A DNA stretch of 8,797 nt from Candidatus Woesearchaeota archaeon (lineage in GTDB: Archaea > Nanobdellota > Nanobdellia > SCGC-AAA011-G17 > JACQNH01). Position numbers and translations under genes: made by a program. Below, in pieces: positions 2,908-6,858 of this stretch. A model generated the notes under the pieces. The model was not told the DNA's origin. It worked only from the letters and a program-made list of their open reading frames with translations, and searched no databases. The stretch spans positions 1 to 8,797 of the forward strand of contig CAYIHC010000036.1 in NCBI GenBank assembly GCA_964363105.1. The letters run 5' to 3'. Each line of letters opens with the position of its first letter. Positions within the stretch are counted from its first letter, which is position 1.

Positions 2908-4016
2908 CTGTAAACTGGAAATTGATTTTAGGTATCTTGTTTTTGGTTATTATTTTAATATTTATTCTTACCTTTAAATCCAATAAAGAGGTTGTGAAAA
3001 TCGGTGCGGTTTTACCATTAACTGGGAAAGGGGCCCCTTACGGAGAAGAGTGGGGGAATGCAATTTTAATGGCTGTTGAGGATCTTAATGCTGATGGGGG
3101 TGTTAATGGTAAACTCTTGGAGGTTGTTATAGATGACAGCAAAACTGAAAATGCAGTTGCTGTGACCTCTATGACTAAATTGGTAAATGTAGATAATGTT
3201 AAGATTGTTTTTAGTGGCTTAAGCGGTCCTGTTGCAGCAGTAGCACCTGTCGCTGAAGAGAATAAGGTTATATTATTTGGGGTAACTACTGCAACCAATT
3301 GGGCTTTGGAAAATGAGTATTCTTTTAAGGATTACACAGATATAGCTTTGGAATGTAAATTTTTAGGGGAGAAAGTAAAGGGTAAAAAAATTGCTTTTAT
3401 CGGTGTCAATGTTGATACAACTTTGGATTGTATAAATAGCCTGAAGAATGAGGGTGTAGACTTAGTCTATGAACTGTATACAAAGGAGGATAATGATTTT
3501 CGAAGCCAGATTACGAAGGTAAAGGATAGTGGGGCAGATTTCATAATGATAAGACCCCTTAAGGCTGAGTTTTTGATATTAATAAAACAAATGAAGGAAT
3601 TAGAATTTACTCGACCGTTGATTTGCCCGACTTTACGGCTTACTGGTTGCGATACTAAGGAGTTTATAGAAATAGGAAAAGAGTTTTTAAACGGAGGGAT
3701 AGCAAGCGGATTTTATGTAGATAGAGATAATCCAAAAGTAAGCCAATTTTTTAATAGATATAAAGAGAAATTTGGCAAGGAATTAACAGGAGATGGGATA
3801 TTCGTTTATGATGATGTTAAACTCCTAGGAAAAGTTTTAGAGATTTGTGATAAGACGGGAAATATAGCTGATACGACTTGCCTTAAAGAGGAAATAAAAG
3901 GGCATAGTTTTGATTCTATTGCTGGAAAAGAAAAGCTAAAGTTTGATGATAAAGGTGTAGCAAGTCGAGAAGTAGCCTTATTTAAATTTGAAAACGGTAG
4001 TTGGGTAATAAATTAA
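2904..4016 (+). CDS. Type-1 periplasmic-binding-fold solute-binding protein (LivK/branched-chain amino acid ABC substrate-binding-like) with an N-terminal membrane anchor
   Basis: N-terminal hydrophobic helix (LILGILFLVIILIFILTF), followed by the typical VKIGAVLPLTGKGAPYGEEWGNAILMAVEDLNADGGVNGKLLEVVIDDSKT signature of Peripla_BP_6-type proteins. The only in-frame start before the anchor is TTG at 2904, which overlaps the glyS TGA (TTGA). Confidence 0.8.
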   Translation: MTVNWKLILGILFLVIILIFILTFKSNKEVVKIGAVLPLTGKGAPYGEEWGNAILMAVEDLNADGGVNGKLLEVVIDDSKTENAVAVTSMTKLVNVDNVKIVFSGLSGPVAAVAPVAEENKVILFGVTTATNWALENEYSFKDYTDIALECKFLGEKVKGKKIAFIGVNVDTTLDCINSLKNEGVDLVYELYTKEDNDFRSQITKVKDSGADFIMIRPLKAEFLILIKQMKELEFTRPLICPTLRLTGCDTKEFIEIGKEFLNGGIASGFYVDRDNPKVSQFFNRYKEKFGKELTGDGIFVYDDVKLLGKVLEICDKTGNIADTTCLKEEIKGHSFDSIAGKEKLKFDDKGVASREVALFKFENGSWVIN

Positions 4017-4285
4017 ATTTGTATTAATTGTTTTTTTCTTATCTTGTATAAGCCTTCAATGAAATCGGTTCCTGCATAGCCTGCTAATAAGGATAATTTT
4101 AAATCTGTTGGGAAGAATAAACCTGCAAATAAGCCAATAATTCCCGATGCTATTAATGTGAATAAAATTGCTTGAAGTTTAAAACCTTTAATTTTAGGAT
4201 CTAATTTATATTTTAAGAAGCCGACACAAGCACGTGCTAAACCACCAATAAAACCGAATAAGGCTGCTTGTAAATAAGGTTCCAT
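4013..4285 (-). CDS. Small hydrophobic membrane protein (2-3 predicted helices), function unknown
   Basis: 90-aa ORF with an ATG start (cat 4283-4285). It has Gly/Ala-rich hydrophobic segments (ALFGFIGGLARACVGFL, ILFTLIASGIIGLFAGLFF). An A/T box at 4304-4315 lies about 25 nt upstream. Its stop codon overlaps the stop of the convergent gene (TTAA, 4013-4016). Confidence 0.55.
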   Translation of the reverse strand: MEPYLQAALFGFIGGLARACVGFLKYKLDPKIKGFKLQAILFTLIASGIIGLFAGLFFPTDLKLSLLAGYAGTDFIEGLYKIRKKQLIQI

Positions 4286-4342: not shown

Positions 4343-4364
4343 TTTCTGCTTTTTGTTTTTGTTT

Positions 4365-4862
4365 ATGTCACAAGGTAAACCGGGAAGGCTCGAGATGGAG
4401 TTTATGCAAAGGCCATTTATGACTCATAGGGTGCAAAAAGAAAACTTTTCTTTGTATAATGATGGTTATTTTAATTATGATCGTCTGGATTTTGAATTAC
4501 AACTTGCGAGGGCCGTTGCTTTTAAAGAACTAAGGGGGAAGAAGGGGTGGGTGGAAACAATGGCAATGTTTTTTCTTGATACTGCAGACAGCGATGATGG
4601 GTCATGGAAGAAATTTTTGGGTGGTAAAGGTGAGAAAAAACTAATTGAATATGGTAATAATTATAATGCTGTTGAAACTTATTTGATGAGGGTTATGGGT
4701 GGGAGAAATCCTGAAAAATTTACCAGTCTTACAATAGGGAACTTGGGAAACATAGTTTATGTTCCTTTCGGGAGACCAAGAGATTTCCCTGTTGCTGATT
4801 TTGAGCTTCTTGTTGGAAAAGTATGCGCTAGTGTTACAGGATATGCGCTTTTTATTAGATGA
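4365..4862 (+). CDS. Hypothetical soluble protein (165 aa), no family recognised
   Basis: Long open frame with coding-like composition. I prefer ATG 4365 (MSQGKPGRLEMEF...) over the track's TTG 4353, because the TATA box sits 27 nt upstream of 4365. Confidence 0.6.
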   Translation: MSQGKPGRLEMEFMQRPFMTHRVQKENFSLYNDGYFNYDRLDFELQLARAVAFKELRGKKGWVETMAMFFLDTADSDDGSWKKFLGGKGEKKLIEYGNNYNAVETYLMRVMGGRNPEKFTSLTIGNLGNIVYVPFGRPRDFPVADFELLVGKVCASVTGYALFIR

Positions 4863-4871
4863 TTTTATAAA
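4863..4871 (+). promoter_or_regulatory. TATA box (ttttataaa) for tRNA-Ala
   Basis: Centred about 28 nt upstream of tRNA position 1 (4895). It begins 1 nt after the upstream stop codon. Confidence 0.5.
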
Positions 4872-4954
4872 CACAATAACTTTTTCTTTTTTATGGGCCG
4901 GTAATTCAGTCCGGTAGAATGCTCGGCTGGCAGTCGAGATGCCTCGGGTTCAAA

Positions 4955-5043
4955 AGAGTTTTCTTTTAAGAAAAGAAACCTCGTAAAGAAAAAAGAAATT
5001 TCTTTTTCCGTGTTTTTCTTTTTGAAAGAAAAAGCTCTGAAAG
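4955..5043 (+). other. tRNA-Ala intron (89 nt), bulge-helix-bulge bounded, position 59/60
   Basis: The central 4-bp helix is ttca (4949-4952) with tgaa (5038-5041). It is flanked by the 3-nt bulges aaa (4953-4955) and agt (5042-5044). The outer helix is the T-stem. The inner helix pairs gagtttt (4956-4962) with aaagctc (5031-5037), read 5'-3'. Cutting after the second bulge nucleotide on each side gives 4954|4955 and 5043|5044. Confidence 0.8.
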
Positions 5044-5045
5044 TC
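5012..5045 (+). repeat. 34-nt stretch identical to 6778-6811 (3' end of the intron plus the first two 3'-exon nucleotides)
   Basis: gtttttctttttgaaagaaaaagctctgaaagtc occurs at both loci. The upstream 12-mer tttctttttccg (4999-5010 and 6764-6775) is also shared. So is tttcttttRAGaaaagaaa (4960-4978 and 6728-6746). Confidence 0.95.
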
Positions 5046-5062
5046 CCGACCGGTCCACAACC

Positions 5063-5070
5063 TTTTTTTT
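5063..5070 (+). terminator. T8 tract, likely archaeal transcription terminator for tRNA-Ala
   Basis: tttttttt begins 6 nt after the discriminator base. Oligo-T tracts act as archaeal termination signals. Confidence 0.5.
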
Positions 5071-5199: not shown

Positions 5200-5541
5200 A
5201 TGAGTAAATGGTTTAAGAATTATACTGGAGATTATCTTGGAACTTATGTTCTTTCAGGTTTGACAATAATATATTTTTCAGCTGCGGCTAGCTTGTTCTT
5301 GTCGGGTTGTAAACTTTATCAGAACAATAGCGAGCAAAGACCTATTCCTGTTAAGTCAATCCCAATTAGGGAAAGAAATAAATCCAATTTAATAGAACAA
5401 ATGCCTACACCTATTGAAGAACCTAAGCAATGGGAAAATAAACCAGTTCCACGAAAATCAGTTCCTGTAGATGATGATTTTGAAGAATCTGTTGAACCTG
5501 CTTTCGCAAAAAATGGTTTTAGACTCGAGTTTAGGATTTGA
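5200..5541 (+). CDS. Hypothetical lipobox-containing, membrane-anchored protein with a Pro-rich tail
   Basis: ATG start. A hydrophobic segment ends in LFLSGC (lipobox-like L-S-G-C). The repeated motif P-[IV]-P-x-K-S-[IV]-P appears as PIPVKSIP and PVPRKSVP. An A/T box (aaatttaa, 5172-5179) lies about 25 nt upstream. Confidence 0.5.
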   Translation: MSKWFKNYTGDYLGTYVLSGLTIIYFSAAASLFLSGCKLYQNNSEQRPIPVKSIPIRERNKSNLIEQMPTPIEEPKQWENKPVPRKSVPVDDDFEESVEPAFAKNGFRLEFRI

Positions 5542-5976: not shown

Positions 5977-6339
5977 TTATTCTAATTTTCTTATTCTATA
6001 CCGACCAAGTTTAACAATTGCCAATGATTGTTCTAGATCTTTGATATTAATAGACATTAAAAACTCCATTAATACATTTGCGAATTGAAATGCGTTGAAG
6101 GAAGATGGTAGTCTTAGAATTACAATTCCACAATGTGGTTTAGTTTGTGAAGTTATAAAATATCCAAACTCTAAATCTTTTGTTACAAGAATGCTTTTAC
6201 TCCTTATTGCATATTCCAGTATCTTTTTATCAGTAGCTTGCCCTAAGCCGATATCTCTTGCATGTATAACCTCCAAGTTAATCTTTTTGAAAATATTTAA
6301 AGTAGAATAAGGTATGTTTGCATCAAGAAAGAATTTCAT
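5977..6339 (-). CDS. DUF5615 / Mut7-C PIN-like domain protein (putative toxin nuclease)
   Basis: FFLDANIP (N-terminal acidic residue), ATDKKILEYA and ILVTKDLEF match the PIN-like DUF5615 pattern. There is a 4-nt ATGA overlap with the upstream DUF433 gene. Confidence 0.75.
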   Translation of the reverse strand: MKFFLDANIPYSTLNIFKKINLEVIHARDIGLGQATDKKILEYAIRSKSILVTKDLEFGYFITSQTKPHCGIVILRLPSSFNAFQFANVLMEFLMSINIKDLEQSLAIVKLGRYRIRKLE

Positions 6340-6560
6340 CTTTTAATTTTTAATAAACCAACTTGTTCCTCAGAAACTATTTCTGTGGCATATTTTAGGG
6401 CAGATAGTATGCTGTTCTTATCGACACCATATTCCTTTTCAATTTCTTCAAAGGTCATATCACTGGCTAAAGCCCCTATAATCTCATCTACAGTTATCCT
6501 AGTTCCTTTGATTATGGGTTTACCAAATCTTACATTTTCATCGATTATTACTTCTGCCAT
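6336..6560 (-). CDS. DUF433 domain protein (putative antitoxin / HTH partner of DUF5615)
   Basis: The 74-aa ORF has RFGKPIIKGTRITVDEIIGALASDMTFEEIEKEYGVDKNSILSALKYA, the classic DUF433 pattern. It lies upstream of and overlaps the PIN-like gene. Confidence 0.8.
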   Translation of the reverse strand: MAEVIIDENVRFGKPIIKGTRITVDEIIGALASDMTFEEIEKEYGVDKNSILSALKYATEIVSEEQVGLLKIKR

Positions 6561-6627: not shown

Positions 6628-6636
6628 TTTTTTAAA
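6628..6636 (+). promoter_or_regulatory. TATA-like box (ttttttaaa) for tRNA-Met
   Basis: Centred about 29 nt upstream of tRNA position 1 (6661). Confidence 0.4.
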
Positions 6637-6721
6637 TGCTATTAATTTAAAGATTTATAAGTCTCGGTAGCTCAGCCTGGCTAGAGCACGGGTTTCATAA
6701 GCCCGGGGTCGAGAGTTCAAA

Positions 6722-6809
6722 ACAGCCTTTCTTTTGAGAAAAGAAAGCTTGGGGAAAGAAAACTTTCTTTTTCCGAGGTTTTTCTTTTTGAAAGAAAAAG
6801 CTCTGAAAG
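6722..6809 (+). other. tRNA-Met intron (88 nt), BHB-like, position 59/60; paralogue of the tRNA-Ala intron
   Basis: The central helix is ttca (6716-6719) with tgaa (6804-6807). The bulges are aaa (6720-6722) and agt (6808-6810). The inner helix is weaker than in tRNA-Ala: c6723 opposite c6803 is a mismatch, followed by pairs a6724-t6802, g6725-c6801 and c6726-g6800. Confidence 0.78.
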
Positions 6810-6811
6810 TC
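6778..6811 (+). repeat. 34-nt stretch identical to 5012-5045
   Basis: Direct comparison of the two loci; see the 5012-5045 entry. Confidence 0.95.
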
Positions 6812-6851
6812 TCTCCCGAGACACTTAAATTTACTGAGATTATTACTACGA

Positions 6852-6858
6852 TTTTTTT
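6852..6858 (+). terminator. T7 tract, possible terminator downstream of tRNA-Met
   Basis: ttttttt lies 29 nt after the discriminator base. It is the first oligo-T run after the tRNA. Confidence 0.35.

Follow-up and report, generated by a model that had tools for sequence, protein, structure and literature searches.

The 8,797-nt stretch analysed here (the window; contig CAYIHC010000036.1 of the Candidatus Woesearchaeota archaeon assembly GCA_964363105.1) carries, at positions 6661-6823 of its forward strand, a tRNA gene with a CAU anticodon (tRNA-CAU) that is split in the T-loop, between tRNA positions 59 and 60 (59/60), by an 88-nt insert (6722-6809). This is very probably a functional archaeal tRNA gene with a bulge-helix-bulge (BHB) intron whose removal would depend on the splicing endonuclease (EndA), the functional steps being those of the known pathway. 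The basis for this reading is the architecture of the gene, the tRNA recovered by in-silico splicing, the fact that the arrangement recurs in further tRNAs and genomes, and an intron sequence that is strongly conserved. An earlier, sequence-only reading of the window had described a CAU tRNA with an 88-nt BHB intron at 59/60; this description was borne out, and every coordinate that it gave matches the sequence.

Architecture of the interrupted tRNA-CAU gene

Between the two strands of the T-stem, the gene reads TTCAAA, then the 88 nt of the insert, and then a single T (Table 1). The junction has the 3-4-3 geometry of a BHB, with two 3-nt bulges on opposite strands around a 4-bp central helix. 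The cuts were placed according to the BHB rule, after the second nucleotide of each bulge. They take out the 88 nt and rebuild the T-loop TTCAAAT, giving the spliced junction GAGAGUUCAAA/UCUCUC (the slash marks the joint). The helices, the bulges, the predicted cuts 6721/6722 and 6809/6810, and the restored TTCAAAT proposed in the sequence-only reading agree with the sequence base for base.

After removal of the insert, ARAGORN recognised the resulting 75-mer as tRNA-Met(cat) with a standard cloverleaf. RNAfold likewise gave a cloverleaf-like minimum-energy structure (-34.0 kcal/mol, z = -4.44), and all of the universal nucleotides are present (U8, A14, G18, G19, A21, U33, G53, T54, T55, C56, A58 and C61). 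For the unspliced gene, ARAGORN returned no match, nor did Rfam at its gathering score. A permissive Rfam scan found a partial tRNA match at 6668-6731, with 26.3 bits against a threshold of 29, and for the insert only weak matches of the long-hairpin, microRNA-precursor-like kind.

In the minimum-energy fold of the precursor, the four tRNA stems (acceptor, D, anticodon and T) are retained and the intron is drawn out into one long, near-perfect rod (z = -4.6 versus shuffled sequences). When the T-arm and intron were constrained to form the BHB, the fold lay 0.4 kcal/mol above the minimum for tRNA-CAU, and 2.3 kcal/mol above it for the tRNA-Ala gene of the same window that is described below. 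The body of the intron can be modelled as three hairpins or as a single rod, the rod being the minimum-energy fold; the few variable positions among related introns (GAG, AAG or AGG) are compatible with either, so that covariation gives no decision between them. When the insert was shuffled 200,000 times by mononucleotide, a BHB arose in the exact register in 0.4% of cases under a relaxed criterion and in 0.14% under a strict one. A second assembly, from another Hainich sample, contains an identical 359-nt intergenic region that includes the interrupted tRNA-CAU gene, and this independent copy excludes an assembly artefact. Since the arrangement is rare in shuffles, costs only 0.4 kcal/mol relative to the minimum, recurs in other tRNAs and is identical in the second assembly, a chance origin is unlikely.

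Following the known pathway, the gene would be transcribed as a 163-nt precursor, with the TATA-like box about 27 nt upstream and the run of T downstream as the likely signals. In this precursor, T-loop nucleotides 54-57 (UUCA) would pair with the UGAA near the 3′ end of the intron. This pairing would complete the BHB, in which the T-stem supplies the outer helix and the base of the intron the inner one. The EndA of the host would then cut after the second nucleotide of each bulge, an RtcB-type ligase would join the exons and restore the T-loop UUCAAAU, and the intron would be released, probably as a circle. Only after splicing could the T-loop make its tertiary contacts and receive its modifications. 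The 3′ terminal CCA is not encoded in the gene and would therefore be added after transcription.

The strict hBHBh′ motif, the substrate of strictly specific alpha4 and alpha′2 enzymes, has both flanking helices paired as far as the bulges. The tRNA-CAU junction does not conform to it, since the C6723/C6803 mismatch stands beside the 5′ bulge. Because of this mismatch alone, which produces an effective 4x1 loop, we assign the substrate to the "relaxed" class in the sense of PMC3239211.

Table 1. Positions of the tRNA-CAU gene, its splice junction and the related tRNA genes (window positions unless a locus is named)
Feature	Position	Strand	Sequence	Basis or remark
tRNA-CAU acceptor stem	6661-6667 with 6816-6822	+	GTCTCGG with CCGAGAC	sequence
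tRNA-CAU D-arm		+	GCTC / AGCCTGGCTA / GAGC	sequence
tRNA-CAU anticodon arm	loop 6694-6700; anticodon 6696-6698	+	CGGGT / TTCATAA / GCCCG; anticodon CAT	
tRNA-CAU variable loop		+	GGGTC	sequence
tRNA-CAU discriminator A73	6823	+	A	sequence
tRNA-CAU 5′ exon (positions 1-59)	6661-6721	+		acceptor 5′ strand, D-arm, anticodon arm, variable loop, T-stem 5′ strand, T-loop 54-59
tRNA-CAU intron, 88 nt, at 59/60	6722-6809	+		in-silico splicing, folding, family alignment
tRNA-CAU 3′ exon	6810-6823	+		T-loop nucleotide 60, T-stem 3′ strand, acceptor 3′ strand, discriminator A73
BHB outer helix (T-stem 49-53/61-65)	6711-6715 with 6811-6815	+	GAGAG with CTCTC	sequence
BHB central helix, 4 bp (T-loop 54-57)	6716-6719 with 6804-6807	+	TTCA with TGAA	sequence
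BHB 5′ bulge	6720-6722	+	AAA	predicted cut 6721/6722
BHB 3′ bulge	6808-6810	+	AGT	predicted cut 6809/6810
Mismatch	6723 opposite 6803	+	C opposite C	sequence
BHB inner helix, 3 bp	6724-6726 with 6800-6802	+	AGC with GCT	leads into the long rod
Polypurine/polypyrimidine rod of the intron	6728-6797	+		predicted, above the inner helix
Putative tRNA-CAU promoter, TATA-like	6630-6637	+	TTTTAAAT	centre about 27 nt upstream of tRNA position 1
Putative archaeal transcription stop	6852-6858	+	run of 7 T	about 29 nt past the tRNA-CAU discriminator
tRNA-Ala(GGC), with G3:U70	4895-5057; exons 4895-4954 and 5044-5057; intron 4955-5043	+		89-nt intron at 59/60; sequence
Putative tRNA-Ala promoter, TATA-like	4863-4871	+	TTTTATAAA	same distance as in tRNA-CAU
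Putative tRNA-Ala transcription stop	5063-5070	+	run of 8 T	
tRNA-Ser(UGA)	L005 2087-2289			T-loop intron and further introns, our reading
tRNA-Ser(UGA)	L011 1252-1453			T-loop intron and further introns, our reading
tRNA-Ser(GGA)	L015 4313-4522			T-loop intron and further introns, our reading
tRNA-Ser(GCU)	L016 3819-4004			T-loop intron and further introns, our reading
tRNA-Leu(GAG)	L015 1157-1280		AGAGCTTTCTTAGGAAGAAACCTTTGAAAGAAACTGAAAG (intron)	40-nt intron at 59/60

A family of introns at position 59/60

The tRNA-CAU insert is one copy of a conserved intron family whose long copies measure 84-89 nt and all lie at 59/60. A second copy interrupts the tRNA-Ala(GGC) gene of the window. The sequence-only reading had stated that this gene shares the architecture of tRNA-CAU, and the comparison upheld it, as the two introns are homologous, occupy the same 59/60 site and are identical over their last 33 nt. 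Further copies were obtained by searching GTDB genomes with a 20-mer from the 3′ end of the intron, and by a metagenome scan. The sole relevant match in GTDB was a groundwater metagenome-assembled genome (MAG) of Candidatus Woesearchaeota (JACQNH010000058, locus L005), which carries the same intron at 59/60 of a tRNA-Ser(UGA). The metagenome scan gave three more, on contigs of a single sample (Ga0209541), in the genes for tRNA-Ser(UGA) (L011), tRNA-Ser(GGA) (L015) and tRNA-Ser(GCU) (L016). The remaining matches of both scans were rejected as chance; most of them fell in bacterial-labelled or coding-looking sequence. We also ran our own scan for 59/60 introns, in which candidates were spliced and then checked by ARAGORN; it recovered all of the long copies and added a tRNA-Leu(GAG) gene. 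In every tRNA gene of these loci the 59/60 site is occupied, by six long copies and one short one in six isoacceptors, each with the complementary TGAA. Ordinary uninterrupted tRNAs (Thr-GGT, Gln-CTG and Ser-CGA) were found in more distant Pacearchaeota loci.

The alignment of the six long copies (Met(CAU), Ala(GGC), the two Ser(UGA), Ser(GGA) and Ser(GCU)) revealed that the 3′ 33 nt of the intron, GTTTTTCTTTTTGAAAGAAAAAGCTCTGAAAG, are identical in all of them, across at least three sampling sites; this block includes positions 6800-6807. Pairwise BLAST over the intron and a few flanking T-arm bases gave 84-96% identity among the Met, Ala, Ser-UGA, Ser-GGA and Ser-GCU introns, and the substitutions and indels fall in the central part of the rod. 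All six copies preserve the central helix, and its sequence is invariant. Three copies (Met, Ser-GGA and Ser-GCU) place a C across from C6803, and the Ser-UGA copies place a U there. The Ala copy alone has a G at this position, and its BHB is strict and fully paired (G4956-C5037), unlike that of tRNA-CAU. The sequence-only reading had attributed a relaxed motif to the C/C mismatch of tRNA-CAU. The mismatch is real, but it is not peculiar to this gene: since C/C or U/C occupies the first inner position in five of the six long copies, the relaxed pair is a trait of the family.

The two tRNA-Ser(UGA) loci, L005 and L011, are orthologous and 89.7% identical over 3.9 kb. At this background (10.3% divergence), roughly nine changes would be expected in the T-loop intron, and only one of its 88 positions has changed; the exons are identical. 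Conservation of the intron sequence is far higher than recognition by EndA should need.

The tRNA-Leu(GAG) intron looks like a shortened relative of the family (AGAGCTTTCTTAGGAAGAAACC... followed by ...TTTGAAAGAAACTGAAAG); its inner helix is poor, and the motif resembles the hBH type. In our reading of the sequences, the tRNA-Ser genes hold further introns. An extra intron interrupts the anticodon stem of Ser-UGA and Ser-GGA at 29/30. A short one directly follows the anticodon loop in Ser-GGA and Ser-GCU, which brings Ser-GGA to a total of three. ARAGORN disagrees with this reading after removal of the T-loop intron, calling the L005 and L011 genes Arg(tcg) and the L015 gene a tRNA with a stop anticodon.

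A solitary intron-like hairpin, CTTTCTTAGGAAGAAACCTTGGAAAGAA, was found at 1304-1331 of L005 and 422-451 of L011, where it occupies the spacer that separates two protein genes and no tRNA is nearby. Over 28-30 nt it matches the Leu intron with 96-97% identity, and it may be a relic of intron mobility or the source of the intron.

Judging from the copies compared, the family has spread between tRNA genes of this DPANN lineage, which is of the Woese-/Pacearchaeota type, in the way described for Thermoproteales. A stronger version of this idea, which we put forward tentatively and regard as less probable than not, is that the element is a T-loop-specific mobile BHB intron family of groundwater Woese-/Pacearchaeota, that it targets the universal T-loop TTCAAAT through its own 3′ UGAA, and that its sequence is itself under selection. 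The invariant 3′ 33 nt, the single change in 88 positions against 10% divergence, and the solitary spacer hairpin would fit this version. It could take two forms that do not exclude each other: the rod-shaped RNA left by excision, probably a circle, could be functional or lead a selfish life of its own, or the endonuclease of the lineage could need a long inner helix.

Competing explanations, tRNA identity and the endonuclease

Several observations weigh against a functional, endonuclease-dependent intron in tRNA-CAU. The C/C mismatch turns the 5′ bulge into what is effectively a 4x1 internal loop, which a strictly specific enzyme might refuse. The unconstrained minimum-energy fold leaves the 4-bp central helix open. 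The T-stem outer helix covaries across the family, with four of its five pairs changed on both sides, and this is expected of any tRNA, while covariation backing the structure of the intron itself is almost nil, given that the copies are near-identical.

The gene could instead be a dead tRNA (a pseudogene) struck by a small repetitive hairpin or an element resembling a miniature inverted-repeat transposable element (MITE), the BHB-like pairing being incidental. It is true that standard finders do not call the interrupted tRNA-CAU gene, and the spacer hairpin of L005 and L011 demonstrates that intron-like sequence exists outside tRNA genes. Nevertheless, across six isoacceptors the inserts keep the exact 59/60 register, the TGAA and a restored 7-nt T-loop; the exons are intact, with all universal nucleotides, and are identical between orthologous loci that are about 10% divergent elsewhere. 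The window and the four related loci yielded no uninterrupted tRNA, so that the interrupted genes appear to be the working copies. Moreover, in the window and 13 lineage-related loci (about 120 kb), the hairpin motif occurs outside these introns only in that single spacer of L005/L011, and the solitary copy bears more on mobility than on decay. We consider a pseudogene very improbable.

Even less credit can be given to the idea that the insert is a self-splicing group I or group II intron, or the host of a C/D-box guide RNA. Group I introns occur in archaea, as PMC6125680 says in its title; the tRNA-Trp intron of Haloferax volcanii guides 2′-O-methylation of that same tRNA (PMC4090602); and the CUGA at the 3′ end of the present intron resembles a D box. 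However, a group I or II ribozyme would need far more than 88 nt, Rfam gave no group I/II or guide-RNA match even at E <= 10, and a C box is absent, the candidate UUGAGAA varying among copies (GAG, AAG or AGG).

Two identities have to be weighed for the spliced tRNA, which is either the elongator tRNA-Met or the AUA-reading tRNA-Ile2. The initiator tRNA-Met was ruled out, as the first pair is G1:C72 rather than A1:U72 and the pairs 29-31/39-41 are G-C, G-C and U-G rather than three G-C pairs. That the gene, spliced by the same mechanism, encodes an Ile2 whose C34 is converted to agmatidine is the less likely of the two. The ARAGORN name Met rests on the anticodon alone, CAU being common to initiator Met, elongator Met and Ile2, which are separated only with isotype-specific models (PMC8450103). 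AUA is also very common in the genes of the window: its 13 main open reading frames (ORFs) hold 244 Ile codons, of which 107 are AUA (44%), 111 AUU and 26 AUC, versus 60 AUG codons, and an abundant AUA decoder must therefore exist. On the other side, we found in the literature no usable archaeal TiaS/Ile2 rule that would serve as a positive determinant of Ile2, and Nanoarchaeum equitans, also a member of DPANN, reads AUA by a tRNA-Ile(UAU) and has no Ile2 (PMC8450103). With 107 of 244 Ile codons being AUA and 60 AUG codons, both decoders are in heavy demand, and splicing of tRNA-CAU would be important under either identity.

From the odd position of the intron and its relaxed motif, the sequence-only reading had predicted that the host encodes a broad-specificity EndA, of the (alpha-beta)2 or epsilon2 type. 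Position alone does not call for such an enzyme: archaeal EndA recognises the BHB itself and not the mature tRNA body (summarised in PMC3239211), and 59/60 is the twin of 37/38. The choice of subunit types was also too narrow. Kaneta et al. 2018 (PMC5829648), who predicted tRNA genes for one Pacearchaeota and one Woesearchaeota genome, described EndAs of the alpha4 type that bear an additional loop (L3) and occur in several DPANN lineages. They associated these enzymes with many disrupted tRNA genes and concluded that, of the factors behind the substrate range of EndA, subunit type contributes least.

With tblastn, no EndA gene was detected in the window or in the related loci compared. Using the Methanocaldococcus jannaschii sequence (verified against PDB entry 1a79) as the query, we found EndA homologues labelled Nanoarchaeota or Woesearchaeota, none of them tied to the organism of the window or to the MAG with the intron family. 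Each consists of a single unit, about 170-240 aa long, in which both EndA domains are present; the host may in addition have a diverged beta subunit. The catalytic residues Tyr115, His125 and Lys156 are invariant in the ten that were aligned. Compared with the M. jannaschii enzyme, these ten show no obvious insertion towards the C-terminus. Because alpha4-type enzymes with L3 are tied to disrupted genes and the DPANN homologues are single-unit, an alpha-type EndA alone would not refute splicing.

Many of these homologues (P0118, P0119, P0112, P0125, P0122 and others) bear a Lys-rich N-terminal tail of 20-50 residues that the M. jannaschii EndA lacks; it could provide an additional contact for RNA binding. 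Two Woesearchaeota MAGs have the EndA gene next to a divergent Lactamase_B_2 gene (L027 1693-3636 and L032 1004-2624). As a guess from the Pfam family, this neighbour could be RNase Z-like, and the pair a small tRNA-processing cluster.

Genomic setting, known systems and meaning

The window is AT-rich (about 31% G+C). Its gene products include Alba, ribosomal protein S17e, a diphthamide-synthesis protein, a HIT protein, a DUF433/DUF5615 pair and a protein that we assigned, from two Pfam domains, as class II glycyl-tRNA-synthetase-like. Alba, S17e, the diphthamide-synthesis protein and the synthetase-like protein identify the window as archaeal. The same synthetase was found on Hainich groundwater contigs from 0.1-um filters, and the closest relatives of the TMEM43-like protein encoded downstream of tRNA-CAU are labelled Pacearchaeota. 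A search for an ortholog of tRNA-CAU by way of this TMEM43-like gene found no tRNA upstream of it in L024-L026 and L028-L030. Directly upstream of tRNA-CAU, on the reverse strand, DUF433 (6336-6560) and DUF5615/PIN-like (5977-6339) genes form a pair with a stop/start overlap, a typical toxin-antitoxin arrangement. Two ORFs that flank tRNA-Ala (4353-4862 and 5200-5541, forward strand, 169 and 113 aa) and a third at 4013-4285 (reverse strand, 90 aa) had no Pfam match.

The closest known parallel to the tRNA-CAU intron is in ARMAN-2 (Candidatus Micrarchaeum). According to Fujishima et al. 2011 (PMC3239211), the EndA of this archaeon cleaves its pre-tRNA-Cys(GCA) in vitro at a 59/60 intron whose junction is relaxed; the pre-tRNA-Pro(GGG) carries introns at 53/54 and 59/60, and the Pro junction is strict. 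The two cases share with tRNA-CAU a DPANN host, a 59/60 intron, a BHB-type junction and a gene missed by ordinary finders. The Cys intron described there, however, has 13 nt and is of the hBH type without one of the bulges, whereas the tRNA-CAU intron has 88 nt and both bulges, and the mismatch beside the 5′ bulge is its sole relaxation. ARMAN-2 also belongs to another DPANN lineage than the present host, which is of the Woese-/Pacearchaeota type, and the sections of PMC3239211 on its introns describe no family conserved in sequence such as the one found here.

A second parallel is offered by Thermoproteales, where near-identical introns in different isoacceptors were read as intron transposition (Fujishima et al. 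2010, as summarised in passages of PMC4033280 and PMC4090602). In both cases similar introns occur across isoacceptors, a spread is deduced, and single tRNAs may have multiple introns (three in Ser-GGA here). As far as these summaries describe them, the Thermoproteales families belong to Crenarchaeota with an (alpha-beta)2 EndA and use many intron positions; the present one belongs to DPANN and uses the single 59/60 site, with a length of 84-89 nt and an invariant 33-nt 3′ block.

In geometry, the 59/60 site in the T-arm is the exact counterpart of the canonical 37/38 site in the anticodon loop. In each, a 5-bp stem closes a 7-nt loop; the first four loop nucleotides enter the central helix, and the sixth is the last one before the cut. 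Unlike an intron at 37/38, one in the T-arm blocks the elbow contact between T-loop and D-loop, as well as the modifications of the T-loop, until it is spliced out; tRNA-CAU has no intron in its anticodon loop.

BHB introns at 59/60 and the spread of introns among tRNAs have thus been described before, and what is new here is a family conserved in sequence at one site over many tRNAs. The two tRNA genes of the window were missed by ARAGORN and by Rfam at the gathering score, and the interrupted genes of related loci (6/6) by ARAGORN and a permissive Rfam scan (E <= 1). Unless annotation also looks for T-loop introns, the tRNA sets of such DPANN genomes will therefore seem incomplete; Kaneta et al. 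2018 (PMC5829648) already suspected that disrupted tRNA genes go unidentified in these lineages. The strict junction of tRNA-Ala and the one-mismatch relaxed junctions of the Met and Ser genes provide natural paired substrates for the tolerance of DPANN single-unit EndA. With a single conserved intron occupying the same site in at least six isoacceptors, intron spread of the Thermoproteales type now extends to a DPANN lineage, and a family defined by its sequence is useful for studying how BHB introns move. If the family is mobile, tRNA introns would have spread on a large scale a second time, independently of the case in Thermoproteales.

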